DNA of 61,015 bases, counting the filler, from Hausera hauseri (lineage: Eukaryota), in NCBI GenBank assembly GCA_046269625.1. It is 10 parts of 10 records of this genome, joined end to end, with 100 filler letters (N's around TTAATTAATTAA, not from the genome) between each part and the next. Parts side by side here need not be neighbours in the genome. Positions count along the whole stretch, not along the records: positions 1 to 12,659 come from JBJURY010020008.1; 9 more parts are not named here. One strand, 5' to 3'. The translations under genes and the position numbers were made by a program. The notes under the pieces were generated by a model, which was given only the letters and a program-made list of their open reading frames with translations, was not told the origin of the DNA and searched no databases. This document shows positions 1 to 44,397 of this stretch, one piece after another (the first letter of the stretch is position 1; each line of letters opens with the position of its first letter).

Positions 1-2
1 TT

Positions 3-764
3 GGATGTAGAAGTGAAAACTACAATCCTATAATGATAACAGAAATACATCCAGAGGCAAGAGCACAGGCAACAGTGGAGAATATCCTAAGGGAACTAGA
101 ACCACGCGGAGTAGAAGAAATCTCTACGGGTGATACGCAAGATGTCACAGTTCAAACGGAAGCCAAGAAAAGAGGTAGGCCGAAAGGGACGAAAGTAAGT
201 GACATTCATAACAGAAAAGATAGAAACGAAGAAATAGTAAGACGATTATTATTATCAGGAACAAATGGCACTCTCGAATCAGTAGATATAGACCCACTAC
301 TAAGAACGTTATTGGCTAAGCTGCATACGTCATTTGCTTCATTTGACATGCAGGCAATAATCCCAGACGAACTGTTCACAACGATACGTAATAATATGTT
401 ACGAATAAGTAGGCAATTCTATGAAAACTTCGAGGAAGAACGGATAAATGAAACGCATGAACTGGATATTTTAGAAAAAATGTTTGCAACTGGAATTACG
501 CGCGAGAAAGCTCGAACGGTGATATCATATCTTCTATATAAAATAATAGTAATTAATCACCAAACTCAAAATCGAGAAGAAATTGAGCTGAATATAAGGA
601 CAGCCGTAAAGATTTTGAAAGATACGTTAGGCTATTGGGCTCAATGTAGAGGTGGATGGTTGACTAGCCTGATGACCAATATAATAAGGTCAGGGGAACA
701 AGGAAGAGTAACAGATACGCCAACTGCGACACAACCCAACATCTCTAGATCAAGCACAACAGGT
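3..764 (+). pseudogene. Polyprotein region upstream of the glycoprotein; helical, with AT-hook-like KKRGRPKG
   Basis: Frame is open from nt 3. Colinear with contig-7 ORF 43306-44397: EARAQATVENIL/KARTEQCVGQIM, KKRGRPKG/RPVGRPKK, LLYKIIVIN/LLYLAIKIN. Confidence 0.7.
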
Positions 765-2656
765 ATGTCAATGATGGAGATTATTCAAATCCTCCTAATA
801 ACGTCATTATTAATGCCAAAAGCTGTAGGTAGAGTAGCTTATGACTGCTCTAAACCTAGTGAAGGTCAAAAGTACTCTCTAGTGGATTTGGAGAAATGCC
901 CAGCTGACCCAGAACAGTTAACGACGACAAGTGGTCTGATATACTGGGTATATCAAGAATCCGAATTTATAAAAGGGAAAGTCAGGGAATGTTATGTAAA
1001 AAGATCATTTTTCCTGTTTAATTGTGCCTATTATTCTGGAAATTCCGCCATAACCGAGCCTACGACACCTCTCGAACCAATTATTATATCGGGAGCAGAA
1101 TGTCAAGATGTTTTTAAGATTGGTATCATAACTATACAAAACGCGCATATACCAGCAGTTCGAAATCGACTAAGTATACCAAAATATTTAAGGCAGGAAG
1201 AATAGATAAAACAATGGAAGGCACTTGCAAAGGAGTGGATTACGACGTGGGAGGTACTATTGCGCCTAGAACGGAAACCATAGAAGATTATCAGATCCAG
1301 TTAAAAGAATATGAAGTATTATTCGACTCACAGGCAAAATTGATGACGACTATAAGTGAGTGCGAGTATGATAACGACGAATGTGATACTGGGAAATCGA
1401 AAATGACATTGGAAACCACTGCAAGTAAATGCCAGTTGACGCTATTAAAGAAAGGAAAGTTTAACAAGACGGTAGGAAAAACGGCGGAAAAAGAAACAGC
1501 GACATATAAAGAAGAAACAAAGGAAGTGAAGATGACGGAAGTGGCTACAATCGTATATTCGAAAAATCCGGAAGACATGATGCGATTTAAAATCACGGGA
1601 GTAGCAACTAAGTGTAGTGAAAAGATATCAAAAACTAACTACAAGGGTATCTTAGCAAGAAAAGAAATACCCGGTGCGAAAACCAAAATAGAAAAGAAAG
1701 ACATAAAGTTGACGCAATATTTCGATAATAAGATTGACTTTCTAATCAATTACGTAAGGAAAGAAATTAGAGGTTTATATAGAGAAATAATAATGAATGA
1801 ATGTAAGCTGAATTAGGAAATAATGCGCAATAAAATGGCATTGGTAATAACGAATCTGGACATGGTAGAGCCCGTAATGCCCTTCGGCGACGGAATCATT
1901 GGTAGAGTGATTGGCGAGGTACTGATAACAATAGAATTCAAGAAGGTAAAAGTATCAATCAGACCAACAGAAGAAAACACAATGGAATTACCTGTGGTTT
2001 ACCATACAGAACCGAGATATGTGATGCCAGTAACCAGAATATTATTAGATATTATTGTGAAGCCTACTCCACTATACAATTGCACCTTCATTATGCCGCC
2101 AATGTTTAAGATCGACAACGATAAATGGATTAGAACGCCTAAAAGAGAAGCAGTGCCCAAACCGAAGACGTTAAGTTTGATTAATCTGCAAAAAAATCAA
2201 AAATTCAAACCGCTAACGGGAATATCTCAGGGAGGAATTTACACACAATAAAATCTAGAGGATTATCGACGAATGTTGTTGTTTCCCCCACAAAGACAAA
2301 GAGTGATAACAGAACTGACTAGGAGAGTAATGTGGGATGGCGAAGGATCACCGCAATGGGAAAACCTTATGGGTAAGGACTATCTAAAGAGGGTAACAAG
2401 AAACGTTATGGAAACGATGTGGGGAAAGTACTTATATTTTGGCCAAGCAGCTTCCGGTTTTCTAGCTATATGTTTTATTATTAGCGCCATACGGACAGTA
2501 TTTACGGAACTAGGTAAAGCCTGTGGAATACATGCAGCAGTAGGATGCTCATGAAAAATTTTAATAGCGGTAATACCAGCAGTAGCAAGTTGTTTCTTAG
2601 CAAACCATGATGCACGATGGAAGAGGAAGATACTACAAAGGAAAGACATAAAATAA
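765..2656 (+). pseudogene. Chuvirus-like (class III fusion) glycoprotein: internal signal peptide, ectodomain, TM
   Basis: Signal IIQILLITSLLMPKAVG|RVAYDC, then chuvirus-G-type motifs YDC..YSLVDLEKC, AGRID..GTCKG, YFDNKIDF..LYREII..EC, GEVL, ELPVVY, PPMFKI..W, GGIY, FP, WGKYLYFGQAASGFLAICFII. One frameshift at ~1160-1190; stops at 1814, 2249, 2552. Confidence 0.85.
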
Positions 2657-2896
2657 TCCCTGTATAGTATACATGATGATAATGATGCCGAATATAGTCA
2701 AATGAAGACAAAGAAACGAGTAGCTAGAATCAAACAATTAGTGCTAAAGACACGGGAGCCGAAGTATATACTAAAGTTAATAACTGACCTACCCCGTCTA
2801 GATCCTGTGGATGAATATCATAGACAGTTGTATAATGAACAACCGTTAATAAATCCTTCACCTCCCCGATACGTAGTATATACAGGACTATAGCCT

Positions 2897-3475
2897 ATGC
2901 GTCAAGTGCAACAGATAAAACAGAGTTTTGATGAAAATTTGACTCCCTATGAACACAAACCTAAGTACACTGTTGACGATAAAAATGAAAGACAACCATC
3001 TATAAGACCAGAAATAAAAATAGAGGTGAACGGATATCCAATGACGGCTTTACTAGACACAGGATCTACAACAACGATAATGGGAAGGAGCCAATTGCCA
3101 AAGGAATTAAAAAGAAAGTTACGAAGACCAACTACTACATTAATAAACGTAGGAGCATTCGGTACAGAAGAGGAAATCAAGATGGTCTTAGATGCCAAAA
3201 TTAAGATCGGTGAACAAATGTTGAAACATACTATAAGGATAGCAGATAATTTGACTAACGAGATTTTAATTGGGTGCGATATATTAAATCAACTGGATAA
3301 CGATTACATAGATATGAGAACGTGTCAAATTAAGCCGTTCGATGAAGATCGTAACGAGGGAATGGTTTCTATAACAAGAGACATTACGATTCCACCGCGA
3401 TCCGAGGTAGTGGTACATGAAAAAATAGAAAGTCGTGTTGTACCAGAGATTATATATTTTGAACCGTCCCCATAG
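2897..3475 (+). pseudogene. Retropepsin (aspartic protease) plus Gypsy PR-RT linker
   Basis: ALLDTGS (Asp codon 3056-3058), ILIGCDIL, IPPRSE linker. Confidence 0.92.
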
Positions 3476-3679
3476 GTTATTAAGAAATATAAATTTTTAA
3501 TCGCCCCTCACGTAGATAAAGTAAGAGATGGAAGAGTCCACTTACGAATTTGTAACACAACAAACAAAGAAAAACGATTACGGAAGTGTACCAGACTGGG
3601 AAAAATAACGATTACTGAAGAAATAATAAAAGAAGAAATCTGCCAAATAATATCAGATATATATAAAATAGAAAAGATA

Positions 3680-5183
3680 ATGACAGATAAACTGAAAAGG
3701 AAACCAGAGGAAGACAAAAGAAGAAATAAAACCACGAACATCGATTGGAACGAGAGATTACAAAAATGCGAAATTCTAAGTAATGAAGAGAAGGAGATAT
3801 TAATCGAATTATTGGAAAAGAATAATAGTCGATTTGCACAAACTGACTATGATCTAGGCACGATGAAGGTAATACAGCATGCCATTAAGTTGAAGGACGG
3901 CCAAGACAAGCCAATTAAGAAAAGACCGTATCGATTAGCATACGATAAAAAACAGGAAACACGTAAGATAATAAAAGAAATGAGAGAAAACGAGATAATC
4001 CGACTAAGCTGTTCCCCATGGACGGCGCTTGTGGTAATGGTCAAAAAGAAAGATGGAACTATTAGATTTTGCATAGACTATAGAGCCTTAAACAAAATAA
4101 CAGAGACTGATACATATCCCTTACCAAGAATTGACGCGATACAAGATAAACTACACGGATCGACCATATTCACAACTATCAATATACAAAAGGGTTATTG
4201 GCAAGTGGAGGTGAAAGAAGAAGATAAAGTAAAAACGGCTTTCTCAATTGGAGAAGGGCTATGGGATTTTAATAGGATGCCATTTGGATTAAAGAATGGA
4301 CCACCAACGTTTCAGAGAGGAACAGAACTTCTATTATTAGATGCTCCACATGCCATGGTATATATAGATGACGTAATAATAGCATCACCAAATTTTCAAC
4401 ATCTAAAGGATCTACAGGATCTTTTTGATAGATGCGAAATAATGGGTTTAAAGATAAATCCCAAGAAATGTTCATATGCACAAGCAGAGGTAGATTGCCT
4501 CAGACATAGTGTATAGACATGGTGTAAAACCTCAGGACAAGCTTTTAGGAAAAATAAGAAATTTTCCTAAGCCAGGTACAGTTAGAGAATTACGTCAATT
4601 TCTAGGTTTAACAAACTATTACCGAAGATTCATAAAGGATTTTAGCAACATTGCAAAACCGCTGTATGAATTATTACGTGAAGATCTAGATAAAGTTATA
4701 TGGTCGAACGAATGTCAAAAAGCTTTTGAATATTTAAAAGATAGACTATTAACGGCTCTCATATTAATCTATCCAGACATGACTAAACAATTTATTTTGG
4801 CAACAGACGCAAGTGATTATGGAGTAGGAGCAGTACTATCCCAGAAGGGCGAAGATGGAAAGGAACACCCTGTAGCTTATGCGTCATGAAAACTTAATAA
4901 GCATCAGAAGAAATATGCTGTAATAAAAAAGTTATTAGCAGTAATATTTGCCTTGGAAGTGTTTTCACCCTGTATTAGTGAAAATAAACCGATCTTAATT
5001 TATACGAATCATAGACCGCTCCAATGGCTAAAGCAGCATGAGAATCCAAATTGCAGACTACTACGATGGGCTCTAAAGTTACAACCGTACACATTGAATT
5101 TCCAGTATAAACCTGGATCGCGAAATGCCAACGCCGACTACTTATCGAAAATACCCGATAAATCAGAAACAAAAAGGCAGTAG
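3680..5183 (+). pseudogene. Reverse transcriptase and RNase H (frameshifted)
   Basis: RPYR, SPW, RFCIDYRALN, YPLPRID, RMPFGLKNGP, YIDD (4361-4372), RQFLGLTNYYRRFI, TDASDYGVGAVLSQ, KPGSRNANADYLS. Confidence 0.95.
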
Positions 5184-5200
5184 TCGCAGCTGTATGGAGT

Positions 5201-6296
5201 ATGGATGGATCAGTCGAGAAAATTAAGGCAAATCAAAATGAAGATGTAGAAATAAGGGCCATTAGAAAATACATAAAAGACAAAACCATATTAGTTGACA
5301 TAGAGTTAACCCGTCATCTGGCTCGATTTAGTGAAGCTTACGAGGAAAAAGAAGGATTTCTATATTTTATTAGCCAAAACGGACCTGCATTAGTAATTCC
5401 TAGAAAAAATAGAGCAGTTTTACTGACTCAGTATCACGATGGATTACTTGGTGGACACCAATCGGCCAATAAGACACTAAACAAACTAAAACGGAAATAC
5501 TTTTGGCTAACGATAATGAAAGACGTACAGGAATGGTGCGAGAGCTGCAACCTGTATGGTACCCGGAAAAACACGGGATCAAAATTCAAAGAGCCACTAA
5601 AGGTATGGGACAACCCTCCAGCGCCATTCGAGTTTACCGCAATGGATATAACGGGGCCATTACCGTTGACACGAAATGGAAACAAATATATTTTAGTCTT
5701 CATCGACTATTTCACTAGATGGGCTCTTGCTCTGCCAATGCCTGATATGAAGGCAGACACAATTGCTGAGAGATTTGTGGAAAATATAGTATTTAATTAC
5801 GGAGCCCCAAGGATCCTCTTGACTGATCAAGCTGCAAATTTAACTGGAACTGTAATGCAGTCCATATACGACATCCTGAAGATATTAAAATTACGATCCA
5901 CGCCGGGACATCCGGAGAATAATGGAATGGTTGAGATATATTGGAGATTTAAAAGGAAAATTAAAAACGGTGGTAAATACTAGGCAAGACGATTGGGACG
6001 AATATATCAATACGTGTTTTCGTAAATCGGACATCTGTTCATGAAGCTACTAAGGAGACACCGTTCTACTTAATGTATTTCCTGGATGCAAGATTACCGA
6101 TTGATCTAGATTTTAATGTAAAACCAATTTCCCATTTAATAGAAATAGAAGATTATAAGCAGTTGATGCAGGAACGTCTAAGTTAGATAGGCCCTATAAA
6201 GGACCGTATGAAGTAGAAAAAGTAGGTCTACCGAATATTTGCTTAAAAAAGAATAAAACCTTTGTAAAGGTCCACGTTAATAGATGTAAGCCCGCT
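5201..6296 (+). pseudogene. Integrase (degenerate HHCC, DDE core, GPY/F tail)
   Basis: HDGLLGGH..CESC, MDITGPLP, IDYFTRW, LTDQA, HPENNGMVE; YKGPYEV..VHVNRCKP at ~6190-6295. Confidence 0.92.
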
Positions 6297-6395
6297 GCCA
6301 AGGAGAGCAAACTAAGAAAAGGTGAAAAAGAGTCGGTATGTAGCATTAGTGACAAAGTAATCGAAATAGATTCAATAAATAAACTCCAGATAAAG

Positions 6396-7427
6396 AATGT
6401 CCTATTACTAATCATTATCTTGTTATCTCCAATAGTGATAGGACAGATGACGAATTCAGAAATCGAACGAGCAGAAATGAGACCTGCCATAGCTATACAA
6501 GAAGATTTGTTAATGAAAGCTTTACAATGTAAAATAACATATTCAGAGAAAGGACAGAAAGTAATAATTTGGAGTATGTTAAACCTAATGCCATCGACAT
6601 ATATAATGGGAATACACATGATACCTTGGCATGATAACAAAAGAGACCCTAATGAGAAACAGTACAGTTGTCTATTCCACGCAGGAACCAATCATACAGA
6701 ATGTCCGGTGCACGACTCAGGCGTTCACTACATATACCTTACGCTCATAAGGAAGGAAGGAGATTATTATGGAAGTCAGAAAACGCAATTTTTTAGATCA
6801 ATAGTAGTCCCTACTAGACAACAGATGAACGAAACGTTATTAGATGAAATAATACTCAACCAAATGATAGCAGGACCCATGGGATTCAAAAGCGGAAGAA
6901 GTTGCATTAAGATTATCACAATGATACGATTAGAAAATACCCGAAGAATGACAATAAAACTAATAGAAACAGTAATCCCAGAAGTCAGAGTCTGCAGGAT
7001 TAAAGGCAATCAACAACGAGTGTGTTGTACTGTTATGAGAGGTAAAATATACCACGTCTATTATCTTCTGTTTCGAAAAAGGAATGGTAAATTCAGATAT
7101 CCGGTAGAACTAAAATGACCCACAATGTTCATACGGTATAAAAATCAAAAACAGTACGATGATATACAAGAAAGAATCACGACGCCATCTGTGCAATCCT
7201 CGGCTGATAAAAAAGAGATGACTATCTTACTTAAACCCTACGCTTCATATTATCATCAAAAACGTTCCATATGGGATAACGTAACTATCATAGTGTTGAG
7301 GCTTGATTCGACCGACTCCTCGCATGATCAGAGAAACAATTTGAAAACCTTATCCATAATCACTTTGATATGTGAACCCTTTTTAATAACTAATAAATAT
7401 TTTGACATCTCAATTCTTAATTCTTAG
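6396..7427 (+). pseudogene. Second signal-peptide protein fused in frame after integrase (Cys-containing beta-rich repeats)
   Basis: The GPY/F frame reads without a stop into NVLLLIIILLSPIVIGQ. CLFHAG..EC and CRIKG..RVCC resemble contig-5 CSIHAG..PCC and CNFPY..RKCC. In-frame TGA at 7116-7118. Confidence 0.65.
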
Positions 7428-7781
7428 TTTATGTTAAAACCCTTTGATGGGTATCTATTCCTTCACTGCTGCATGTACACGAACTGTAACCATGAACAGC
7501 CGACAGTATGGGATGATTGAATGTTTTTAATTAAACGAAATTCCCCAAGAAATCTATTTCTAACGATTTTCGAGTCGTAGCAACCATTCTAATTAAATAA
7601 CGATTCTCAAATCGTAACAGTCACTCATGATACATGTATTTCTGCGAAATAATAGAGACGTCCGGAGACTAAGGTAGACAGAAACATCCGGAGATTGGTG
7701 TAGTGGTAATGTACATTAAAACGGATATGTGGTCCTGTGAAGCATTAGCGTAATGGTAAGGCAAATTAGAACGGATGTGGT

Positions 7782-7893
7782 CCCGTGAAGCATTATAGAA
7801 ATAGGAAATTAATGCCTGTCGAGAAATTAGTGTCTGTCCCGTGAAGCATTATAGAAATAGGAAATTAATGTCTGTCGAGAAATTAGTGTCTGT
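7782..7893. repeat. 56-bp tandem direct repeat (two copies, partial third at ~7720-7747)
   Basis: cccgtgaagcattatagaaataggaaattaatg(c/t)ctgtcgagaaattagtgtctgt occurs at 7782 and 7838. Confidence 0.9.
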
Positions 7894-8079
7894 CAAATTC
7901 TAAAAACAAAAATTGATTTTAGAAAACGGGACAAGAACAGAAAATCAATTTCCTGAAAACATCTAAGGTTGCGAGCAAAAATCAAAATTGATTTCAAAAA
8001 TCTATTTAGGAATTCAAAAGAAAACAGGAAACCAACAGGAAATTAGATTTTAAAAATCATTTTAAAACTAAGAACAACC

Positions 8080-8086
8080 TATAAAA
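8080..8086 (+). promoter_or_regulatory. Candidate TATA box
   Basis: cTATAAAAgg lies ~190 nt downstream of the tandem repeats. A short ATG exon with a GTAAAT donor follows at 8354-8408. Confidence 0.35.
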
Positions 8087-10481
8087 GGAAAAACAATTTT
8101 ACAGAAAGACACACAAAATTTTTACTTACTTATTCAATTGTTGCCTGTGTACTACGAATTAAAAGAATTTCCCTGTAATCATAGCAGGTTGAGTATAGGT
8201 TTCACTATACACTTTAACGAATAATTTATTAGTTAACTAAGATATCGGATATTCGAAGCTGTCAAAGAAAAAAGAAAGTATTATCTAAAGACAATTATTC
8301 CAAATTACAGAACTATTACTCTTTGTCCCAAATTTATCTTTGATAAAATCTACATGGCTAAACGACGAACAGAAGAGTTAAATGACCAGCAATCCACAAA
8401 TGGTAAATATTTAATTATCCCATACTTGTCGTTTAAACCATTTGTGAATTTTGTATATATAAATACATTTTTATAAATGAAAATTATGGTCTAATAAATT
8501 ATAATTGATTACCACTATGGTGGCCGAAAGGTAGGTATGTCCCAAAGAATTAGACGGTGTCAGACGAAGAATCGGCAACGACACAGCGATAGAAACAAAG
8601 TTCGTTCCGGGTAACTACGACTCGAAACCTGCCGCGTGACAAGAGATTCAATCATGCATGAAGATGTAGAACGACTTATGTGGGAGAATAGTAATGTCCG
8701 GAGCTGAGGGAGTCGCGATCTAATTAGCACGCGTGGACGAAATGATTCGAGGCGAAGTACAGATGCTAGACAGATTAGTAGTAATGATTAGTGTTATTGT
8801 ATCTATGCACGGTCACGTAGTTGTCAGATATAATTATTTCGTTATATTGCCATTGCACATAATTAATTTTAAATATGTTCTGGTTAATTATCGTTATTTA
8901 GAATTTATTATTTTATGTTTTGATAGTCCTTCAGGATTGTAGAGTATCAGTGTAGATTGTGAACCCTTTTACAAAATTGTATGATTAGAACTTGATAATT
9001 TTGACCTATTATAGTATTTTCTTCTAGTATGTGTGGGAATGATCGAGTAATCATTAGTGGGTTAAAGTTTTAATGTGTAAAAGGGAATTTAGAAAGGTCG
9101 TATAATGCTCAGATATTTTTGAACAATTATTGTCATTTTGAATTTATAGTTTTATATTTTCGTAAAGTTTTTAGGATGTGTAAAATATCAACAGATTGGG
9201 ACTTCGCTTATTGGCATGAATTTGGAGATATTGTCGTAGTGCGTTGTCTATTGCGTGACGGAATGGTTGGTCAATTATCAACAGAATAAAGTTTTGTATT
9301 GTAAAGATAATCTATAAAGGCTGTAGAATTATATAAAAAGTTAAGAAATTCATCTTGTGCCCAGGATTAGAATATAAAAAAAAAGTTAGGAGTCTCTGAA
9401 ACTTTATAATCTGAACATTTTAGAGGTGGATACCACCGGTAAAACTTATTATCTAACACTAAAAATATTAGTCTAATACATGATTAACTAAATATGCGAC
9501 ATGTTAACCCCATAAAATCAAGGAATGAAAGAACTAAATGTCTGAAGAGATTATAAACGAAAGATTAAATAAAAGAATAATCTCGAGTATTCGGCACATT
9601 TGTATTGATGACGGAGGTTATCGTTCTCTTATTCAAAGGATAATATAAGAATGGAAGACATATTAAATAAGTGTGGTTAAGAGACGATTTGAGAATAAAG
9701 AATACGCTGAAATTTAATGCGATAAAATGTTTAGTTCTGATCACACTTATAATAAACATGAAAAAAGGGGTAGCCCTGAACAAAGGAAATATGCACTACA
9801 AATAATAAGAATGTATCATACACTTTGGGAGAAGCAATGTAAATAGACCAATCTTGTAGAGTTTATATGGATGTATCGTGTACATAAATGAACCCTAGTC
9901 ATGAAGTTGTCAGTAAAGATATTAGTGCATAATTATGGCCACACTATAACAGACCAAAGGGCCAGCAAGGATACAACAGATAAAAATTTATAATGGAGGT
10001 TGTCAAAATCTTCGTACTGGAAATTTTGAATATTATAATAATCTAGAAAAATTATTGGTATACAATAGAACGTGTTATGCAGGTACATATTCTATACGAT
10101 AAGCGCATCCTAGGTGATGAAATAATAAGAAGAAACCATGGAATGATTCCATGAATATTATTAAACCTGTTGAAATTAGATTCATAATCTTATTACTTAC
10201 GACTTTGTTCGATAATGCTAAAACAAGGAAAGAAGGAATAATAATAGGTTATATAATAAAAGTGGTGCGAAAATCTGGTAACAAGAAAGAACTATTTGGA
10301 CATAAAATTTAGAAGTAAAGGGCGCTGGATCTTAACATGGGTCAGACCGCCCCAAGAACTCACGATTCTAAAGGATGATAGACGTAATGCCCTACAAGAT
10401 TAACAAGGACAAAAATAATCATTTATATGTTAGTGTGCACTGATTTGTAGAAATACTATAGCCATAACCTAACATATAAAC

Positions 10482-10499
10482 TGGTGCCCCGAGTGAGGA
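10482..10499 (+). promoter_or_regulatory. Primer-binding site complementary to elongator tRNA-Met 3' end
   Basis: TGGTGCCCCGAGTGAGGA versus the complement of the metazoan tRNA-Met(e) 3' end as recalled, TGGTGCCCCGTGTGAGGA (1 mismatch). Confidence 0.7.
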
Positions 10500-10547
10500 C
10501 ATGCTCGAGGGTTAAATTGATATAATTAGTAGAATTATTCTTAACAG

Positions 10548-10868
10548 GTGGTTATTGTGCATATTTTATCAGATATCAGAACCAAGACCACAAAATGTCC
10601 AATATGTTATGACACCCTCGGACTACGATATGCCTTATTCCGGTGCACACACATCATGTGTACCAAGTGTGCTGACCAGTGGTTGTCGAAGAAACAGCAC
10701 TGTCCCTTTTGTAGAAGAACAACCAGCAGCTACAATTGCCTAGGAGTCACCACAGTAGTGATCCTTGATGATGAAGAAGAGGATGAAGAGATAACTGTTG
10801 CAATTAATGAATACCCAGCCGATCTGTATGTAGTCGGCCCAAATGGACTAGTATATATGGAGATATGA
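10548..10868 (+). CDS. RING finger protein with acidic tail
   Basis: CPIC..CTHIMCTKC..W..CPFCR. The frame starts directly after acceptor-like ttcttaacAG (10546-10547). Confidence 0.85.
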   Translation: MVIVHILSDIRTKTTKCPICYDTLGLRYALFRCTHIMCTKCADQWLSKKQHCPFCRRTTSSYNCLGVTTVVILDDEEEDEEITVAINEYPADLYVVGPNGLVYMEI

Positions 10869-10985
10869 GATTACAATATATGTTTATTTCTTGAATTGTT
10901 CTAGTAAAGGGTATTTCATGATTATTAGAGGAAAGGATAATTGATTAAAATAATAATTCAATAAATTAAATAGCAATAGTTTTAG

Positions 10986-11221
10986 GCTGTGCTATCTGCA
11001 AGAAACTTACAGCAGCTTATAATGAAGAGGAGAATTCCTGCCCATTGTGCTACCTCGTCGAAAAAATGAAACAACGAGAAGATCTATTCGAGTGTGCATA
11101 TTGTGGAGAGGAGGCCAATATAAGTATTATGGTTATGGACTCGAACTGTTTTTTGATATGTCCTATCTGCTCCCTGTCGTGGAGTGATTTGGAGGAAATT
11201 GGCAAACTGACTAATTTGTAA
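10986..11221 (+). CDS. Small four-CxxC zinc-binding protein/exon (absent from ORF track)
   Basis: After ttttAG the frame reads CAIC..CPLC..CAYC..CPIC..stop, with AATAAA overlapping the stop. Confidence 0.55.
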
Positions 11222-11431
11222 TAAAAGTAAATTAACTGCTGTGTCTCACGAAATTTGGTTTTGCATTACATGTGTGCCCTAATAAGTGGAATCATGAATT
11301 TAAAATGATTAACGATATATAGAAGTTGTTTTATTGGAAGAACCTGTTATTTGTCAATGAATGAATACTTGTAATAAACTATTACCATTTAAGGTAACGA
11401 AAACAGAAATGAAAATAGAAGTGAAGATAGG

Positions 11432-11854
11432 ATGGAACCGGAAAAATGCCCAATCTGCCTCGAAGAGATAATGCAAGAAAAAACTACACTGCCGTGTAAA
11501 CATAGTTATTGCAGTCCTTGCATCAGCATCTGGTTGGGGGAGCACAACAATTGCCCCTGTTGCCGAAGAGATTGTACTTTCTGTTGGGTATGCTCCAAAT
11601 TAATAGCAGAGGATTTGGCCACCCTATCATGTAGGCATATGTTTTGCCAGTCATGTATACTTGAATACCTAACTTGTTGCCAATTGTGCCCCTATTGTTT
11701 GGAAACAGTAGATTTTTACACTACAGAAGGAGTGATCACGTATCTGAATGTGAACGGTCAAACTTCTATCGCTTTAGTGATTGATGAGGACGACGGCAGT
11801 TGGCCAGAAGCGTGGAGAAATCCACAACCATACACACTGCTGGATATAAACTAA
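11432..11854 (+). CDS. Tandem double-RING protein
   Basis: CPIC..CKHSYCSPC..W..CPCCR, then CWVC..CRHMFCQSC..CPYC. AATAAA follows at ~11867. Confidence 0.88.
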   Translation: MEPEKCPICLEEIMQEKTTLPCKHSYCSPCISIWLGEHNNCPCCRRDCTFCWVCSKLIAEDLATLSCRHMFCQSCILEYLTCCQLCPYCLETVDFYTTEGVITYLNVNGQTSIALVIDEDDGSWPEAWRNPQPYTLLDIN

Positions 11855-11915
11855 AAACAATTTATTAATAAAATTAATTGTGATAAATCGTTTTATTCCC
11901 TTTTATTATTTTAAG

Positions 11916-12199
11916 ATCTGAACTCCATACCCATACTATCACATGGATTCCGACAAAGGACAATACACCAATATTCAGTCTATAACCCAAATGGAGTTTT
12001 TACCACAATAGGAAAGGAATGTACCATTTGCCTTAATAACTATTCAATCAAGCCCGTACAGCTGGTCTCTTGTAAACACCAGTTTTGTCGCTGCTGTATA
12101 AGGGAATGGTTTCTCCAAAATAACACTTGTCCGACGTGCCGTACCATTAATAAACTATTCTTGTACGAGAACAAATATTATACAATAAAGAATTTATAA
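11916..12199 (+). CDS. RING finger protein/exon (absent from ORF track)
   Basis: After ttattattttaAG the frame reads GKECTICLNN..SCKHQFCRCCIREW..TCPTCR to TAA at 12197-12199. Confidence 0.8.
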
Positions 12200-12261
12200 A
12201 TAGAATTTGTTTAAAGTTTTGACTTTTAGAAATATAATGTATTGTAGATGAGATACAGAAA

Positions 12262-12659
12262 ATGAAAAAAGTTCAATTTCAAACTCCCAGATACAGTGAA
12301 TATACAAGACCAGCACAACCTAATACGGTACAGTACATGCTGCATTACCAAAATAGACAATTTGGACCGTCAGCGTTTATTAAAAGATTGACAAGCTACT
12401 CCAGAATGACAGTATTGGACAACTCCATGAGAGATACACAGAACAGGAAAATATCATTCCTCGAATATCCAAATTCACCCGTTCCAGGGGAATTAGCACA
12501 ATTATATGCCAATGCCGGACTATTCCGAACTCCAACAGGACAAATAATATGTATATATTGTCAGGGAGAATTTCAGTATGAACAGATAAAGGATCGACCC
12601 AAAGAAAAACATAAGAAATTACGCCCAACTTGTCCTTACTCGTTGAACGTGGAAGTAAG
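12262..12659 (+). CDS. BIR-domain (IAP-like) protein, truncated by contig end
   Basis: RKISF.EYP..LYANAGLF..CIYC..D.P.EKHKKLRPTCPY matches the BIR C-x2-C-x16-H-x6-C pattern. Confidence 0.82.
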
Positions 12660-20381: not shown

Positions 20382-23010
20382 TTGCAGCAGTACAGCAAGT
20401 TCCACACACTTCAACGCAGCACACTGGATCATCAGCGCAGCAGCAGACATTCCAAATACTCCACCAAAAGTCAAAGGCAGCGAGCAGTTGATATCGCAGC
20501 GTTGAAGAAAAAAGTCCGCAGATACGTTATTGCTGCAACTGATCAAACAACGCTCCCTAAGTTTCTGGAATGTACAAAGGATGAAACCATGGGGATTCTC
20601 CAAGACAACATGGTAGAGATCAAGGCCCTTAAAGTCAACTTAAAATTAGAGGCCACATACACCAATGTTGATGGCAAATAATCGAATAGGGCCCTCAAGA
20701 CTGAAAATAAGCCAATATTGGAAGCCACCAATATTTCAGAATGGATGCATGAGGAACGCACGAAGCTGATATGTGAAGCTTAGGAAAGCCAGAACAAGAA
20801 GAGAGGATGGATTCTGGCAACCATAAAGAGATTGCTTATCTTTGTGCACAAGTACTCCCCATGCAAGGCAGCTCCTATATACAGCTTCCGGAATGGATCG
20901 TTAAGAAAACCATACATCAATGTCCATAATGATGATTCAATGTGTTTCAAATACTCCATTCTTTCAAAACTCGTACAGGATCAGAAACATGCATGTCGAG
21001 TTTGGTTGTATAATGATCAACAGTGCAATTATGATTTCCAATGTATTACGTTCCCACCATCCTTAGATGAAATCAAGAAATTCGGGCGACTTAACAATAT
21101 ATCCATCAATATCTTTGGATTAGAGGAAAATAAATTCTATCCGCTACAAACATGTGATGCCGAATTGGAAGATCATAGGGATCTGCTCCTGCTAAACGAT
21201 GAGGAAAAGAGGCATTTCATATGGATCAAGAACCTTGAGCGTCTAGTGAGATCCCAAATTATAAAAGATGACTATAGAATTGAGATCTGCAAACGACGTC
21301 TGTCCCATTTCAGTGGCAAGTTTGCTCTGGAGAAACTTACAGATCACAACATATACTGCAACAAAAATATTGCATCAGGACAGAATTTCCCAAGGATGAC
21401 CATATAGAATTTAGAGTTCGAAAAGAAGCTCAAGGTTCCAATAGTCATCTATTGCGACTGAAGCAATCTTGAGTCCAGTTCAGAGTTGCAGTTCGAATCC
21501 GAAACAAAGCAGCACAACAGCATACCAATATCACGAAATCTCTTCATGTTGTATGTATGCAAAAGGACTGGACAAGGAACCATTTCTATTCAGGGGTCCA
21601 AATGCAGCAGCACATTTTATCAAGCGATTAGAAGAAATCGTCCATAAGATGGAAGTTATGTTGAAGCAACATAAGTTTTTGGATAAAATGACCATGTCAA
21701 AGGAACAAGAAGAATGGCGTGAGGCAACAACATGCTACTTTGCTCCAAATCCTTCACAGCGGAGAATCACAAAGTCAGGGATAACTGCCACTTTACAGGC
21801 AAATATCGAGGCGCAGCCTGCAACAATTGCAATCTACGATGCAGAACAATGACATTCGTGCCTGTAGTATGCCATAATCTCAGTGGTTATGATTCCCATT
21901 TCACAGTCCAAGAATTGAGAAACATTGAAGGTAACATCGATGTGATTCCCAACAGTGAGAAGAAATGTCACCTTTACGAAACATGTTGGAAAAGTCAGAC
22001 TCCGTTTCATAGACAGTCTCCAGTTCATGTCTTCACTTGACAGTTTAATGAGGAACCTCCCAGCAGAAGAACTGGAGGAGACGAAGCGGCTCTTTCCAAT
22101 TACATTTGAATTGCTCAAGAGGAAAGAAGTGTTTCCCTATGAATAAATTGCATCACGGGGATCACTAGATAAAACATCATGGCCGGCCAAGAAGGACTTT
22201 TATAGTCAACTCTCAAACAGTGATATCAGCGATGCGGATTATCAACACGCACGAAAGGGTCTAGGAAGCATTCAAATGTAGGACAATAGGAGAATATAGT
22301 GACATATCTCAAAACCGACGCGCTGCTGGTGACAGATGTCTTTGAAAGCTTCCAGAATGCCACACTTACAAGCCACAGGCTGGATCCAGCTCATTTTTTC
22401 ACAGCTCCAGAAATGAGTTGGGCAGTTATGCTGCGATATACCGGCATTAGACTGCAGATCTTGAAGGATTATGATATGATCCTCATGATCGAGCGAGGCA
22501 TTAGAGGTGGAATATGCCAGGCCATTCACCGGTATAGTGAGACCAACGAGTACATAGCCAAATATGACTCATCAAAGCCATTCTCGTATATCACATACTT
22601 GGATGCCAACAACCTCTATGGATGGGCAATGAGCGCCCCACTGCCGTATGATAACTTCAGATGGGTGAAGAATCAACAGAATCAACATCGAATTGGTCTG
22701 TTATTGGAAAAGGACCAAGAAGCTGATTGCTAAACCGAACTTCCACAACAGCACGATATATGCTAAAAATCTGGTCAGTATTCATATGCTAAAAACATCG
22801 CGAGTTCAACAAGCCAATTTATGTTATCAAAGAAAGTCAGCTTCGCTGACTGAGAGTTCTGCAAGAACAGACTCATAATATCAGAAATGAAGCGCATACA
22901 GTCTCATGACCATCAAACACAAATAGTAGCGCTGCAGAAGAGCTTGGACTGATTCGACGACAAACGGCACAATATGAAAGACGGAATCTACATACTGCCA
23001 CACGCATATG
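20382..23010 (+). pseudogene. Protein-primed family B DNA polymerase (Polinton/adintovirus type), fragmented, internally deleted
   Basis: NVHNDDSMCFKYSI, RDNCHFTGKYRGAAC..CNL, HNLSGYDSHF, RFIDSLQFM, FPYE, YLKTD..DVFE, RGIRGG, YLDANNLYGWAMS, then an abrupt jump to KLIAKPNF and terminal FDDKR. Confidence 0.9.
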
Positions 23011-23513: not shown

Positions 23514-23761
23514 GGAATCTTTGGCCTGATACTAACACTGACACAGAATATGATAGTGATGCAACGGTTATGTAATTTTGTTGTTTGACATAACGCTAAA
23601 CATTTTTATAAGCACAATGTGAACCATGTTTATGATAAATACATGTAATGATTTTTGGTATNNNNNNNNNNNNNNNNNNNNNNNNNNNNNNNNNNNNNNN
23701 NNNNNTTAATTAATTAANNNNNNNNNNNNNNNNNNNNNNNNNNNNNNNNNNNNNNNNNNNN

Positions 23762-25059
23762 TAGTCACCAAGGTACTTACCTTCTGCCATGCTTCACCCC
23801 TGTTTTGCCATCCGGGCATAAGTAAAACTACGGATATAATTAGGTCACAGTTCTGGTGGGGTTCCTTAGCTAAGGACGTTAGAGAATTCGTTGGGTCATG
23901 TATCCAATGCTCCCAGGCCAAACCCTCTCGGCGTCCTCCAGCGGGTCTCCTAAGGCCACTACTGATTCCTTCACGACCATGGTCTCACATCTCTATGGAC
24001 TTTGTTACTGGCCTACCACTGTCTGGGGGTAAGACTACCATTTTGACTGTTGTTGACAGATTCTCCAAGATGGTTCATCTGGTTGCACTGGAGAAGTTAC
24101 CCTCGGCTAAGGAACTGAGTGACATTATGATAAAGGAGGTCTTTAGACTCCATGGCCTTCCTAAGAACATCGTGTCCGACCGTGGTCCTCAGTTCATTTC
24201 CAAGTTTTGGTCGGAGTTTTGCACCACTCTCAATATTGAACTAAGTCTCTCTTCAGGTTTTCACCCCCAGACCGATGGCCAATCAGAACGAGCCAACCAA
24301 GAACTGGAGACCCGCCTGCGTATACTCTGCGGCAATGATGCAACCAAGTGGGCCAAGAATCTTCCCATTGTTGAACATGCGATGAACTCACTTCCTTCCA
24401 GCGCCACAGGTCTGTCCCCTTTTTATGTGCTATATGGTTTCCAACCACCAATCTTTGCCACCCAGGAACGAGCAGCCATGGTTCCATCGGCCTATCAGGC
24501 AGCCCAAAGATGCCAAAGGATCTGGAGAAGAGCCAGGCAACAACTATTAAGGTCCTCCGCAGTTTACACACGATCCTCCAACCGTCACAGAATTCCAGCG
24601 CCACATTATCAAGAAGGACAGAGAGTTTGGCTGTCAACCAAGGACCTACCCCTTCGTGTAGACTGCAGGAAACTGGCTCCCCGATTCATCGGTCCCTTCC
24701 CTATTTCCAAGGTGGTAAACCCAGTAGCTGTCAAGTTAAAACTCCCCAGTTGCATGAGAATCCACCCTACGTTTCATGTGTCCCGAGTCAAACCGGTCCA
24801 GTTTTCTCGATTCTTGCCCGCCTCCAGGCCCCCTCCACCCGCCCGACTCATCGATGGCGGCCCTGCTTTCACTGTTCGCCGCCTGATACGTTCTCGACGC
24901 TGGGGCAGAGGCACCCAGTACCTCGTCGACTGGGAGGGATATGGTCCTGAGGAAAGGTCATGGGTGCCAGCCCGGCACATCCTCGACAAGACCCTTATCA
25001 GTGATTTCCATCGCGACCATCCTAATCAGCCGGGTGGTCCGTCAAGAGCCGGACCGTAA
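23762..25059 (+). CDS. Chromovirus (sushi-like) integrase plus chromodomain, intact frame
   Basis: [57 protein letters not shown]; GC content is higher than in the other contigs. Confidence 0.95.
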
Positions 25060-29640: not shown

Positions 29641-31390
29641 GAACAAAAAGCTTTCGACGAGATGAAGAAAATATTAAGATACCCAGACTTTAACTTGCCC
29701 TTCATAATCAAGACGGACACCAGTAAAGAAGGTATTGGATATGAATTAGCACAGAAAAGAGAAGATGAAGAATTAGAGCACCCGATTGCTTATGGAGGAC
29801 GTTCCTTAAAAGAGGCCGAGAAAACCTATTCTGTTACTGAATTAGAAACTCTAGCTGTAAAAGAAGCACTTCAACACTTCATCGTTTATGTGTACGGGCA
29901 AAAGATTATAATTGTCACTAATCACAAAGCTGTTACGACCTTAAAGGGACGAGCAAATAATCCGACATGCAGACTTAACAGATGGACAGAAGAAATCTCC
30001 AGATATAATATTGAATTCCAGTATAAACCAGGGAATAAACAAGTAGACGCTGACGCATTATGAAGATTAAAGATCAAAACCAGTACAATTGCTGTAATGA
30101 AGAAAAGCAAACTCGAAGAGATAATAGATCCTCAACGCGCCTTGACAATGGATAAAGCAATTAAAATTTTGACAGAACAGAGAAGGGATAAAGTCATCCA
30201 ACAGATTATGGAATTTGTTAAAAAGGAAGTCATACCGAAGGGACGACAGTTACAGAAACATTTACACAAACACGGACATAAATATTGCGTCTTAAACGAC
30301 AAGAGCAACGAAGATATTTTATATTACTAGCGAAAAGGAAGAAAACTGATAGCTATTGCCAAAGATTTACGAACCGAAGTGTTAATGTCAGAGCACGACT
30401 TGTACTTAGCCGAACACATGTATTGGAAGAAGACATTAGAAAGGATAATGAATAAATACTTTTGGCCTAGTATCTATATTGATGTGAAGAATTGGGTGAA
30501 TGCTTGTGAAGTATGTGCGACTAAGCAGAAGAAGACGAAAAATTACATGGCCAAATTAAGACCAATTTATGTACCCGACAGGCCCATGCAAACCATGTCG
30601 ATGATATCGTAAGACCTCTTCCTACAACTCACAAGAGCAATAAGTATATTTTGACGTGTATTGACCGATTAACTCATTTTGTTGAGTTAATAGCATTAAT
30701 CGATGAAAAGGCCAAAACCTTAGCAGAAGCCGTAGTAAGAAAAATTATTTGCCGATACGGCCCCCCCAGACCAGATACTCAAGGATCGAGGAAGAAATTT
30801 TACAAGTGAATTATTCAAGAAAATCACTAAAATATTTTAAATCGAACGATTAGCGACTACTGGAATGGTGGAACGAATGAACGCAACTGTTATACGTATA
30901 TTATCGACAGTAGTAGCAAAAGACCGTAAAGATTGGGACGAATTTTTGGAAGGGATTCAGTTTGCTATTAATACCACACCATATCCAGCAACAGGATTCA
31001 CTCCATTTTTCATGATGTATGGACGCGCAGCTGTGTTGCCCACGGACTTAGAAATGACGCCATACACAATCAATCCCAAAGATTTAGAACAAAATTTCGC
31101 AGAAGTATTACAAACGCGATTGCAAAAGTGTTGGGAAATAGCCAAAAAATTATCCCAAGAATGTCAGGAGCAGTTTAAAAAGCAATATGATAAGAAGCCA
31201 AAACCGCATTATATAGAACAAGGAAATTGGGTTTATGTACATTACCAGGTAGCCAAGAAAGGCACCTTATTAAAATTAACTCGCACAGGCAGAGGACCGT
31301 ACGAATTACCAAGGTTACGCCAACCATAGTATTTATTAACAAAAATGGAAAGGAAGAAATCGAATCAGTACAGAGTTGTTAAGACAGAAA
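29641..31390 (+). pseudogene. RNase H and integrase
   Basis: KTDTSKEGIG, ELETLAV, TNHKA, KPGNKQVDADAL; H..AEH..CEVC; GMVERMN; TGFTPFFMMYGR; RGPY. Confidence 0.92.
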
Positions 31391-31449
31391 TACGGCCAAA
31401 TAAAAATTATAATCTACGTCAGCGTGAGATAAAAACTTCTTCAATAATT

Positions 31450-32712
31450 GCTAGACCGATATTATACGTTCAAATAGTTTTAGCATTATCGTTAATTGCT
31501 TTATATATTCCGAAAGCTAACTCCGAGCTGTCCAAAGAAGACGCAGGAAAACAAAAAGATACACAAAGTTTAAAATCAATGAGGGCCTACGGTGCATATT
31601 GGGAAAATCCGTGCGTTTGGTTTAAGGCAGATGACCCTGTTAAAAGCCGTGTAAAATTCCAAGTATTATTCATAGACCTAGGCAATGCTGCCCTAAGGTC
31701 GTGCAATTTTCCATATTGAGCAAAAAGGAAGTGTTGTATGTTAAATTTTGATTGAACATATACATACAAACTGCAAATGACCTACTATAATATACGTGGT
31801 ATTCAAGTTCATATACTTATGGAGCTCAATATAATCACGCCGAAACAGAATGAAACAAGTCAGGCTAAAACAGAGGAAATAATTCGAAGTACCGATCCGA
31901 ATATACAAATATTGGACAAGAACATTAACGGAATCTTCATAAATAAGGAAAAACAATGCATTCAAATAGATGCTCGTACAGGAGTAACTCTTAACCAGGA
32001 AATTAGTATTGTTTTCGAAGCAGTAAACGGAAAAACCCCGAGAATAAATTACTGTTCTATTCATGCCGGTGTACAACGCCCATGTTGTAGGTTACCAGTG
32101 AACCAAGAGTTGAAATTAAAATTCGACTTATGTGAAGTAAGGCCAAATAAAACAAACAAACATTTTCGGACTTACTATCCAAAGAATAGGATATGGAAGG
32201 TTCCGGTAAAAACAAACACTAAAATGCCGACTACTCGAGTTAGTGTCATTACCAGACCCGCTACGTCGGGCAATGAGCCTAAAAGAGAATTAGGAGGTAT
32301 ATCTGTGAAATATTCGGCGCAACAATCTAAGATTGTGTTCTTTGTGGAGGAAAAACAACATTACGACATACATATAAGTTGTCGAACAACCTATAATAAT
32401 CAAATTGTAACATTACTTAAAAACACTTATCAGACCGAATGTAGTTTGCTAAAACCGCAATCTGATTACATAGTACAAATATTTGCAGAAAATAAACAAA
32501 ACCAAACAATTACATTGCGTACCTTAGACGAAATTCCCGCAGAACCGCATATGTATGAAAATATAGATGATGAAATCACAACTCCAGTCACAACACAAAC
32601 ACCAATAGGATTAGCTACACTGCCGATCGTATTTATCTCTGCACTGTCAACGTTTTTTTCTTATTATATTAATTGCGATTTCTCGATTAGTTACCAAAAA
32701 CTGTTATTCTAA
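31450..32712 (+). pseudogene. Type I membrane protein with signal peptide, Cys repeats, fibronectin type III-like domain and TM
   Basis: ILYVQIVLALSLIALYIPKANS signal; LKPQSDYIVQIFAEN (FN3 L-x-P-x2-Y-x-V-x3-A-x-N motif, ~32440-32495); Thr-rich stalk; IGLATLPIVFISALSTFFSYYI TM. Confidence 0.7.
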
Positions 32713-32884
32713 GCGCCATAAAAATTCAGAACGGGAATTAAGGGAATTGGAAAACCCTGTAGATCCGTATGATAAAATAACCTGACAATTACAGATCAGG
32801 TTATTTTGTCATTAAACAAAGGAATGGTTTTGGTTTAAAACCATCCTTTGTTTTAAGATTAACCTTTATATTCTCATTTTCAGA

Positions 32885-33964
32885 TTGGTAAGTAGTCAGA
32901 ACCAGATGAACCCGAACCGACTTAGAATCGACACCGAGGAAACTACGAGTCGACTTAGTATCCACAAATTCTTGCAGCGATATGTGACCGTACGGATTCC
33001 GAATTCAAAGGCCATCTATCGGCAAATCAATACAGAATTGCAAGGAAAGAACTACGTTCAATGCGGGAAAGTTGGTGAGATACCAAACGGTCTGAAAGGA
33101 ACGACCGAGGAAGCCATAGCTATATATTTATATGCCGGGAGAGAGAATAAGGACGCCAGAGCATATCCTTTGCAACGGATCACCCAGTACCAGACAAACA
33201 AGGAACAGAAGATATATGTATATTTGGCCGACGGAGAAATCTATTATCGGCTGAAAGACCAAAAATGGGACTCTTTCCAAGGAAGGCAAAGCCGGTTTAG
33301 CATGTTTGAATTTGACACTAGAAATTTCCATAACTACAATCTGGAATTTCGTGTAGCCGCCTTACCTGTGAAAATGATGGTTGAAATAACTGAAGAGGAG
33401 ACAATATCCATCTCATTACCGCCCTTAGAGTTTAGGCAAAGGCCTACCTAAGACGAACAAGACACACATCTACATTCGTTCAGATTGGTAACCAATGGCA
33501 GGAGTATCAGGATTGCCGCAATAAACTATGGAGAAGGAGAAGAAGGAAATTATATCCCGATCGAAATATCCATCCGAGAAGAAAACGGGGCCAAAGTTTA
33601 TTCGAAAATCATTAACCCGAAAAGGAAAGTACTAGAAACTTATGCAGAAGTTACCGGGATTAAAAGAAAACAATTAAATCATGGAAAGGATTCTAAGATA
33701 GTGCAACAGGAAATAGCACAGTGCCTCTACGGATACGTTTTAGTGGGGTATCAAATAGAGAGGATGATAAAAAAATTAGCCATACCGGTAACACACATAG
33801 CCGGAGTGAGAGAGATAAAAACCCACCCGACTGTTACGAGACAAATGGAGATCAAGGTCAAAGAGAAGAACTTATCTACCACCAACCATGGAGAGCCGAT
33901 TCAAGCTTATGGTAGAAGCCATGGCTTGAGGAAATATAAAAATAAGCAGATTGTTGACCGGTAA
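32885..33964 (+). pseudogene. Accessory ORF with REX4/ISG20-like DEDDh exonuclease fold, catalytic acids lost
   Basis: Acceptor ttctcattttcAG at 32882-32883; one in-frame TAA at 33449. ISI.EENG.KVY..IINP...V......VTGI....L..G.....VQQEI...L.GYVLVG matches the REX4 pattern; AAINYG replaces A-x-DCE. Confidence 0.6.
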
Positions 33965-34182
33965 TCAAAGATCCCAATATCTAAGGGACATAAATGCTGG
34001 ATTAAACTGGAAACACGAATGGATTCCCAGTAACTCGGACAGAAACTTCGGAGTTTTCCCAAGCTGGAAGGAATCAGTACACGATACAGAAGCGCTACCG
34101 TCCTTACTCACAACCAAGAAGCGTCGAGACAACACCGAAGTGGAATTACTAAATAACTATACAAGGATTAAAAACGGAGAAA

Positions 34183-34521
34183 ATGGAAGATAAAGTACGT
34201 ACAGATGGAAAACGCAGTACAAGTTATGGCGCCACGGCAGATAATAATCTATTTAAGATACCTGAAGTTCCTCGGAAATGCATAGAAGAAAAACATAGAA
34301 TTTCAGAAATCGAAACAGGAAAAACAACGAAAAGGAAAACCGCCTTTTTCGATTACTTATTCAAGAAGAAAAGTAAAGAAGGAGAAAAAGGACTGAAAGA
34401 AGAACCCAGACAAGACAGAAAAGATTCAAAATCAAAACAACCAGCAGAAGAACCCTCAAAACCAGACATGCAGTCCCGAATTGAGAAGTCCACGAGAAAC
34501 CCAAGCAAACAGAAAGAATAA
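34183..34521 (+). CDS. Lys/Glu-rich ORF, possibly frameshifted tail of the preceding ORF
   Basis: Low-complexity and basic; AATAAA overlaps the stop. Confidence 0.35.
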   Translation: MEDKVRTDGKRSTSYGATADNNLFKIPEVPRKCIEEKHRISEIETGKTTKRKTAFFDYLFKKKSKEGEKGLKEEPRQDRKDSKSKQPAEEPSKPDMQSRIEKSTRNPSKQKE

Positions 34522-35008
34522 ATAACAGAAATAAACGTCCTACGGTAGAAGACATCCACGGAATATGTTCACTACACCACTACGGCAGATTATCCCAGGA
34601 TGCTAATAGCCACAGAATATTATAGCAAACAAAAAATTACGGAGGCAATATTTTTTGTAAAATTAATGCCTGCCAGACAAGTTTTTTGAGAACACGTATG
34701 TCTGGGAAAATCCTAAGATCGGAAAATACGTTGCTCCGATATTTCAGTCCAGACGAAAAGGTAAAATCTTAGTCCCTGTAGATAAGTCAATAAAACTGTT
34801 ATTAAAGAAGCAATATCAAAAATACCGATCGACTGATAAAGTTCCCGATTAAGATCGAGACACTATCAGCGATAGGACTCTAATACCTGTGGGATGCGAT
34901 CCCAAAAAGAGTTCCATAAATCCGAAATAAAAGAGAACCTCTGCTTATTTATACCAAGACGAAGACGGGTTGGTAATAGAACCCATAGAAATTATGCTAA
35001 GAGTTGAC

Positions 35009-35416
35009 ATGGACGACGAAAATTGGGAGAAAGAGGAAAATCAATGCCCAGTATGCGAGGCAAATTTGAAATAAGGGTACGTAGTGTTAAATAACCTCGA
35101 CTGCCGGCACAAATATTGCAGGGATTGCTTAGAGAAATGGACATTAGATAATGGGAAGACAATATGTCGTGTGTGCAGAGCGGAGGTTGCCGACTTAAAA
35201 TATTACCCAAACAGTAGCTACACTAGTATAGTTAGAATAAAGCCCTACCACAATTATGAACTCGAAACAAATCCCAGAGAAGATCAACCAAGTACCAGCT
35301 CTGGACCCAGTCTAAGGAGACCTATGGAATTGTTACGATGGCCTCGTTCTCACGGCTTCTCTCCTGACGCAATGGGCACATCCGAGGATGCCGTTCAGGG
35401 AGAAGAAATGTTGTAA
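35009..35416 (+). pseudogene. RING finger protein overlapping PPT and LTR start
   Basis: MDDENW..QCPVC (stop at 35072) ..CRHKYCRDC.EKW..CRVCR in one frame. Confidence 0.8.
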
Positions 35417-36096: not shown

Positions 36097-36098
36097 TT

Positions 36099-36115
36099 TG
36101 GCGACCCTAGCAGGA
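36099..36115 (+). promoter_or_regulatory. Primer-binding site (probably tRNA-Arg)
   Basis: TGGCGACCCTAGCAGGA begins 2 nt after ..AACA; its complement TCCTGCTAGGGTCGCCA resembles a tRNA-Arg acceptor end. Confidence 0.7.
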
Positions 36116-44205: not shown

Positions 44206-44397
44206 CGCTACCTCTGGTTTAACCCTTAAGAATTTAGCGTATTTCTTAATCAATAGTTTTGGGACCGTGCTATAAATCGTATTCTCACTGGATAATTTAG
44301 TTAATGTTGGAATACGTTGTCTTAACATACTTTCAGTAATGTTTACGTTAAGTAATTCGATTAACTCTTTTTCAGCTAGCTGCGAATCCAGAAGCAT

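Follow-up and report, generated by a model that had tools for sequence, protein, structure and literature searches.

A decayed Ty3/gypsy element in the Hausera hauseri assembly has an in-frame class III envelope upstream of pol and is likely of the Burro type

What kind of retroelement carries an envelope glycoprotein (env) upstream of, and in frame with, its pol domains, and where does its Gag lie? The question is raised by a stretch of 61,015 nucleotides from the Hausera hauseri assembly GCA_046269625.1, the whole of which is called the window here. The window consists of ten pieces joined by N spacers; the element lies on the first piece (1-12659, from JBJURY010020008.1), and the remaining pieces carry additional transposon fragments. 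We hold with high confidence that it is a decayed Ty3/gypsy copy in which a class III env stands in frame ahead of protease (PR), reverse transcriptase (RT), RNase H (RH) and integrase (IN), likely a giant element of the Burro type. Among the Gag-env-pol gypsy elements of the Burro type it counts as a new member, though a decayed one, and the architecture itself is already in print.

Relatives were gathered by a HMMER search of 1.84 billion representative proteins with a profile of both envs of the window (the second is described below), which returned 903 proteins at E<=0.001. Among the best 150 of these 903 matches, 13 with E<=1.1e-39 and at least 748 amino acids (aa) make up the long homologs, and individual proteins are cited below by P numbers. 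From the 5' end of the contig, the open reading frame (ORF) remains and domains of the element are as follows:

3 to 761, plus strand: polyprotein region upstream of env, open as far as the contig 5' end (ORF 3-1205; 41.5% identity to P0100)
near 174 to 188, plus strand: RGRPK motif within the upstream part, which we take to be AT-hook-like
about 396 to 659, plus strand: Bcl-2-like domain (Pfam Bcl-2 E 0.022-0.055, under the curated cut-off)
762 to 815, plus strand: internal signal-like hydrophobic helix before the env ectodomain (frame +3; hydropathy scan)
771 to 2644, plus strand: chuvirus/gB-type class III env (PF24664; frameshift near 1170-1185; stops 1814, 2249 and 2552)
2432 to 2482 and 2525 to 2575, plus strand: hydrophobic segments of env
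2645 to 3004, plus strand: in-frame env-protease spacer, decayed (stops 2654 and 2891)
3005 to 3298, plus strand: retroviral-type aspartyl protease with DTG motif (PF00077, E 2e-11)
3365 to 3613, plus strand: dUTPase-like domain between PR and RT, a weak match (top three PDB matches dUTPases, best E 0.068; stop 3473)
3872 to 4513, plus strand: Ty3/gypsy reverse transcriptase (PF00078, E 1.5e-27)
4701 to 5090, plus strand: RNase H (PF17919, PF17917; frame +3, stop 4887)
5396 to 6311, plus strand: integrase, broken by frameshifts (PF17921, PF00665; tblastn to P0003 and P0018)
5396 to 5572, 5621 to 5914 and 6174 to 6311, plus strand: zinc-binding part, core and C-terminal GPY-type stretch of the integrase

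Frame +2 is interrupted between 1193 and 4516 only by internal stops at 1814, 2249, 2552, 2654, 2891 and 3473, before its closing stop at 4514, and it contains the C-terminal two thirds of the glycoprotein, the two hydrophobic segments, a spacer of ~150 codons, the protease and the RT. A preliminary description of this DNA had listed the same six stops and had run one frame over 1193-4516 from signal peptide to RT; the stops, spacer, PR and RT are indeed there, but frame +3 (ORF 3-1205) holds the signal-like helix together with the first ~130 residues of the glycoprotein, the frameshift near 1170-1185 dividing this first env piece from the remainder. RH and IN are reached via more frameshifts, near 4506, 5160-5215, 5935-6015 and 6180. 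With at least eight in-frame stops and five frameshifts, this copy is unable to make the polyprotein. The Pfam domains of pol follow in the Ty3/gypsy (Metaviridae) order PR-RT-RH-IN, in agreement with the earlier assignment, and among solved structures the RT is nearest to Ty3 RT (E 1e-44), then to the 8r0s enzymatic polyprotein (6e-29) and to Pr125Pol chains (3e-18). The dUTPase-like stretch, for which there was no Pfam match, has homologs in P0003, P0006 and P0010.

The class III assignment of env had been suspected from a chuvirus-like appearance, and it now has good support from the family match and moderate support from the fold. Four consecutive pieces of env match PF24664 (Monjiviricetes fusion) in order, over profile positions 1-584 of 653 (E 1e-10, 1e-6, 6e-19 and 7e-14), and a sequence-profile search ranked gB first (E 0.003). 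An AlphaFold 2 model of 1193-2551, made from an 86-row alignment with X at the stops, reached a mean pLDDT of 84 and a pTM of 0.59; searched against PDB with Foldseek, it gave herpesvirus gB in all matches listed (best E 2.5e-3, probability 1.0). It is on the family match, the gB matches of the model and the gB-first profile ranking that the env is assigned to class III, and in the window element a gB-like env of this class stands 5' of a gypsy pol. In a quick tree of 35 rows taken from the 150 best matches, 20 stand-alone glycoproteins are split off (SH-aLRT 100) from a group that joins the two window envs to 13 polyprotein envs. A helix similar to that at 762-815 precedes env, at the same hydropathy threshold, in eight of 11 long relatives scanned.

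The part ahead of env bears on the Gag question. The closest relative of the window 5' part is P0100, whose residues 521-923 align to window 3-1175 at 41.5%, with a further alignment to 1181-1783 at 43%. Ahead of the aligned part, P0100 has a dArc2-like capsid (residues 25-178, E 0.007), a CCHC motif (197-212) and a weak ubiquitin-like match (473-522); within the aligned part it has a weak Bcl-2 match (651-748). Gag markers also stand before env in the same ORF in P0013 (Retrotrans_gag), P0020 (Ty3_capsid and CCHC, weak) and P0009 (CCHC), and in P0020 a single ORF of 2,146 aa spans Gag markers, env, PR, RT, RH and IN. The Gag of the window element probably lies, judging from these relatives, beyond the contig 5' end. 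For the Bcl-2-like domain, Pfam E values were 0.022 in the window, 0.00096 in P0004 and 0.055 in P0100, all under the cut-off, and a PDB profile search of the upstream region returned dArc2 and then, in the other 59 rows listed, Bcl-2 family members throughout (best E 0.26). The Bcl-2 signal directly before env is weak, and consistent in place and family. No related DNA loci with upstream Gag or long terminal repeats (LTRs) were found in viral contigs or metagenome contigs.

The succession of Gag, ubiquitin-like and Bcl-2 domains in P0100 is that of the planarian Burro elements (PMC6431247), and it is agreement in domain order that leads to the Burro-type reading. The alternative with the most to say for itself is an independent GAG-ENV-POL gypsy lineage, nematode- or bryozoan-like, that lies outside the Burro clade and reached the Burro order by convergence. 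GAG-ENV-POL elements are reported not to be monophyletic on the POL tree in the eLife survey (PMC13524379), and in our quick tree the window env falls outside the 13 relatives, with a long branch. However, the element probably has in common with Burro an unusual succession of ubiquitin-like domain, BCL2 and env, a dUTPase-like insert and a downstream BIR, and the motifs of env domains I-II, compared by eye and without a score, are nearer to six Schmidtea than to ten bryozoan sequences. We give convergence a slim chance.

A different answer had been offered by the preliminary description, which saw an undescribed, env-first metavirus with a single polyprotein and Gag either missing or encoded elsewhere. 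It is true that no Gag is visible in the contig, and that in P0003 and P0002 env is preceded by no more than ~130-140 residues, which gave no Gag match. Against this, 256 open codons precede the signal-like helix and frame +3 runs off the contig 5' end; the helix is internal to the ORF, and the contig starts mid-ORF. The closest relative continues into Gag, three others have Gag markers ahead of env, and the domain order is the one already printed for Burro (PMC6431247). The env is internal rather than first, and we consider an env-first element very improbable.

The join of env to pol is a family trait and not chimeric. Counted by frame, the stops in 2552-3000 number 20, 3 and 19, and with only three in frame 2 the spacer is best taken as decayed coding sequence; it gave no Gag or LTR signal and no Pfam family at E<0.1. 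The distance from env motif to protease is 206 aa in the window and 142-189 aa in the four relatives having both motifs. In 11 of the 13 long homologs, env and a protease after it share one ORF (two of the 11 below the Pfam cut-off), and env is joined to protease in the shorter matches P0022 and P0080 too. The polyprotein extends through RT-RH in five of the 13 and through IN in four. That no Gag lies between env and PR and that env and pol belong to one polyprotein had been put forward earlier, with a search for intact copies having glycoprotein, PR and RT in one ORF as a check; the intact relatives, including the five that run env-PR-RT-RH in one ORF (HMMER and Pfam), bear this out.

Other copies of the element point the same way. 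Contigs from two public runs (X1 and X2) were aligned to the window with an 80% identity threshold, and 31,387 and 3,918 contigs matched in the two runs, mostly 80-95% alike. The element is a many-copy family: summed depth in X1 is in the thousands over 1-6300 vs ~30 over 8400-10100, and contigs are many over 10105-12630 and few over 8421-10104. Near-identical contigs cover 8416-10346 in X1, which means that the same locus is present in that run, that X1 may be where the window came from and that it is not independent support. Within the stop codons at 2552, 2654 and 2891, the aligned contigs depart from the window at 99%, 99% and 52% of depth (X1) and at >99%, 99% and 72% (X2), so that these stops are not family features; a conserved stop, LTR or gag between glycoprotein and PR, which would have told against the earlier account, did not appear. 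The aligned contigs gave no indel row and three low-depth joints only, and X2 contigs overlap across the spacer (2562-2826, 2610-2836 and 2776-3102) with no supported joint where a chimeric join at ~2650-2900 had been considered. Depth drops about tenfold across 2640-2800, which would fit a fast-diverging spacer going below the 80% threshold. A chance juxtaposition or misassembly, with the 3' env of one element beside the pol of another, might be suggested by a many-copy repeat in a fragmented assembly, by the three spacer stops and by this drop in depth, but with the spacer open in the same frame, env and PR in one ORF in most long relatives and contigs of other copies overlapping without a supported joint, its probability is next to negligible.

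Several observations weigh against the Burro-type reading all the same. What places the element there is its domain order rather than an RT tree with Burro1, and the Bcl-2, ubiquitin-like and dUTPase-like matches are all under curated cut-offs. Gag, LTRs and total length fall outside what this contig shows, and the step from env to PR is bridged by overlapping contigs, none of which singly spans env to PR. Two of the 13 long matches (P0004 and P0015) stop just after env, with no protease; the Foldseek search of PDB gave no env match at E<=0.001; and the second env element of the window has stops and no recognised protease in the ~450 nucleotides (nt) left on its contig. That second element (41411-46280, minus strand) belongs to the same clade, its env being 31% identical to the first. 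Decayed frames of ~3 kb, which include a GRPK motif, precede this second env; its upstream ORFs (43306-46280) gave no Gag match and no blastp match to the relatives.

If the element is of the Burro type, its life cycle can be outlined from the predicted topology and from general knowledge of polyproteins. Intact members would be translated as one long polyprotein, of which the Gag, ubiquitin-like and Bcl-2-like domains would remain cytosolic. The internal helix would insert the ectodomain into the endoplasmic reticulum, where signal peptidase would free its N-terminus, and the C-terminal membrane anchor would return the chain to the cytosol, leaving Pol tethered to the tail of env up to the point at which the viral protease separated Gag, env tail and Pol. 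The trimeric gB-like protein may then bring about membrane fusion and the spread of the element between cells, and host cell death may be damped and ubiquitination redirected by the Bcl-2, BIR and RING domains.

Beyond the integrase, the first piece has three further features:

6375 to 7427, plus strand: continuing the frame of the integrase C-terminus, second signal-like helix (6375-6425, by hydropathy) and then ~330 unannotated codons (stop 7116)
7727 to 7891, plus strand: short tandem repeats downstream of the coding region, with a spacing of 48-56 nt (families D6 and D8)
10545 to 12636, plus strand: small accessory ORF cluster, with three RING-finger ORFs above the cut-off, one weak, and a BIR ORF cut by the contig end (Pfam RING; BIR E 5e-8)

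The RING and BIR ORFs are on the same strand as the element, 3-5 kb downstream, and are likely its accessory region; no ankyrin or MATH motif was seen among them. The post-integrase region is open in frame +3, with two stops in 423 codons vs 53 and 39 in the other frames. The tail 6375-7427 gave no Pfam match, and its Atlas matches, all under 0.83, are leads only. The same layout of a signal-like helix after integrase was found in five elements: two in the window (including 29641-36271) and P0003, P0006 and P0018, which are all three of the relatives whose ORF continues past integrase, each with a later membrane helix. The tails of these three have no detectable likeness to each other or to the window, bar an extra protease. 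Hints of Fn3 or Ig domains are weak (Pfam NDNF, E 0.0097, on 31756-32709; Atlas scores under 0.83). We suggest tentatively, and as rather unlikely, that Burro-type polyproteins thread the membrane twice, the second signal launching a luminal, possibly Ig/Fn3-like and fast-evolving receptor-binding partner of the gB-like fusogen. On that view, such elements would be infectious retroviruses of invertebrates with two glycoproteins in a single polyprotein. In the texts on Burro (PMC6431247), from which the window element differs here, and on GAG-ENV-POL elements (PMC13524379), figures and Grohme 2018 lying outside this scope, no mention of a post-integrase signal-led domain was found, and in the one paper listed for such a domain the word fibronectin has 0 occurrences.

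Several relatives have pol arrangements of their own. Two to four tandem aspartyl-protease domains follow env in several intact relatives (P0003, P0007, P0008, P0009, P0013 and P0002), and P0003 has another aspartyl protease after integrase. P0006, an env-PR-RT-RH-IN polyprotein of the same clade, is NCBI HBK71150.1, labelled as a hypothetical protein of a Flavobacteriaceae metagenome-assembled genome; its source is probably repeat DNA of an animal that was assigned to a bacterial bin. In P0070, RT-RNase H runs straight into the C-terminal half of a chuvirus-type glycoprotein, and P0145 has an N-terminal glycoprotein followed by ~960 unannotated residues.

Elsewhere in the window, 29641-34521 (plus strand) is a third gypsy fragment. 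It carries RH-IN, followed by a signal-like helix, then an ORF of weak Fn3 likeness with a membrane helix further on, and at 33452-33964 an ORF resembling DEDD-type exonucleases (RNase_T, E 0.002). A decayed fragment of a protein-primed DNA polymerase B (20784-22733; PF03175, E 5e-5) is presumably Polinton-like, and a 16-nt tandem array stands at a contig start (17272-17623). The gypsy integrase at 23710-25059, with an apparent C-terminal chromodomain (by eye), is GC-rich (about 50%), the other pieces being AT-rich, and given this the window pieces may mix hosts. With transposon fragments on the remaining pieces as well, the window has the look of a bin made up of repetitive DNA from animals, and genes such as those of the RING and BIR cluster may explain why contigs of this sort were grouped as virus-like.

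How does the element compare with known systems? The preliminary description did not recognise the architecture as one already described, a claim that falls on two published groups. The first is that of the Burro/GYPSM1 giant Ty3/gypsy elements of planarians (Burro1-4, Dugesiidae), described by Arkhipova and Yushenova in 2019 (PMC6431247) as the first with an in-frame env between gag and pol. Their text gives a single polyprotein with Gag bearing CCHC knuckles, then ubiquitin-like, BCL2, env, PR, dUTPase-like, RT, RH and IN domains; env, between BCL2 and PR, matches mononegavirus fusion glycoproteins, and BIR is among the extra motifs. BURRO1 has been reported to be transcribed upon piwi knock-down in planarians (PMC8532177). 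The window element has in-frame env, PR, RT, RH and IN in common with Burro and, on weak matches, probably also the BCL2-like domain before env and the dUTPase-like domain between PR and RT, and the upstream Gag with CCHC and ubiquitin-like domain, off the contig for the window copy, is seen in P0100. In both, env lies in frame directly before PR with no gag or LTR between, and both have tandem repeats and many copies; the downstream BIR ORF, if it belongs to the window element, would be a further motif in common. For Dugesia japonica the same text mentions copies in decay, with stops and frameshifts (PMC6431247), and the window copy is likewise decayed; it differs from Burro in this decay and in being cut at both ends, on a contig of 12.7 kb, where Burro elements with their LTRs exceed 30 kb. 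P0100 has ~790 residues before env, with one CCHC and no MATH, Smc or ankyrin match, and with so short a part before env the nearest relative may be more compact than Burro1, whose ORF1 has 4,873 aa. The env label also differs, being gypsy-Env-like for Burro in that text and gB-like class III for the window element.

The second group is that of the "ancient errantiviruses" of Chary and Hayashi in eLife (PMC13524379), GAG-ENV-POL gypsy elements of Nematoda, Bryozoa and Platyhelminthes with nine flatworm and ten bryozoan entries. Like the window element, these combine a Ty3/gypsy pol with an HSV/gB-type env 5' of pol and a Gag further upstream, and the env motif comparison above, in which the Schmidtea sequences matched much better, was made with their Supplementary file 2. 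The survey treats GAG, ENV and POL as ORFs, and its main text is without the words Burro, polyprotein, in-frame or Bcl. Anakin, a mosquito BEL/Pao element with a chuvirus glycoprotein (PMC7642597), has an env of the same family, PF24664, but differs in its BEL/Pao pol and 3' env; with a Ty3-like RT and env 5' of PR, the window element does not belong there. An Anakin-type layout, DUF5641 then env, is seen in P0094. Cer1 (PMC10309623) and Troyka (PMC12440569) were compared as well and were not relevant. As a test object, the broken window copy is no easier than the intact Burro copies in laboratory planarians. Our finding shows the Burro layout, common to env sequences only 27-35% identical, to be that of a diverse clade. 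It also suggests that Burro, as reviewed in 2019, and the flatworm GAG-ENV-POL errantiviruses of the eLife survey are one and the same, a link not drawn in the main text of the latter.

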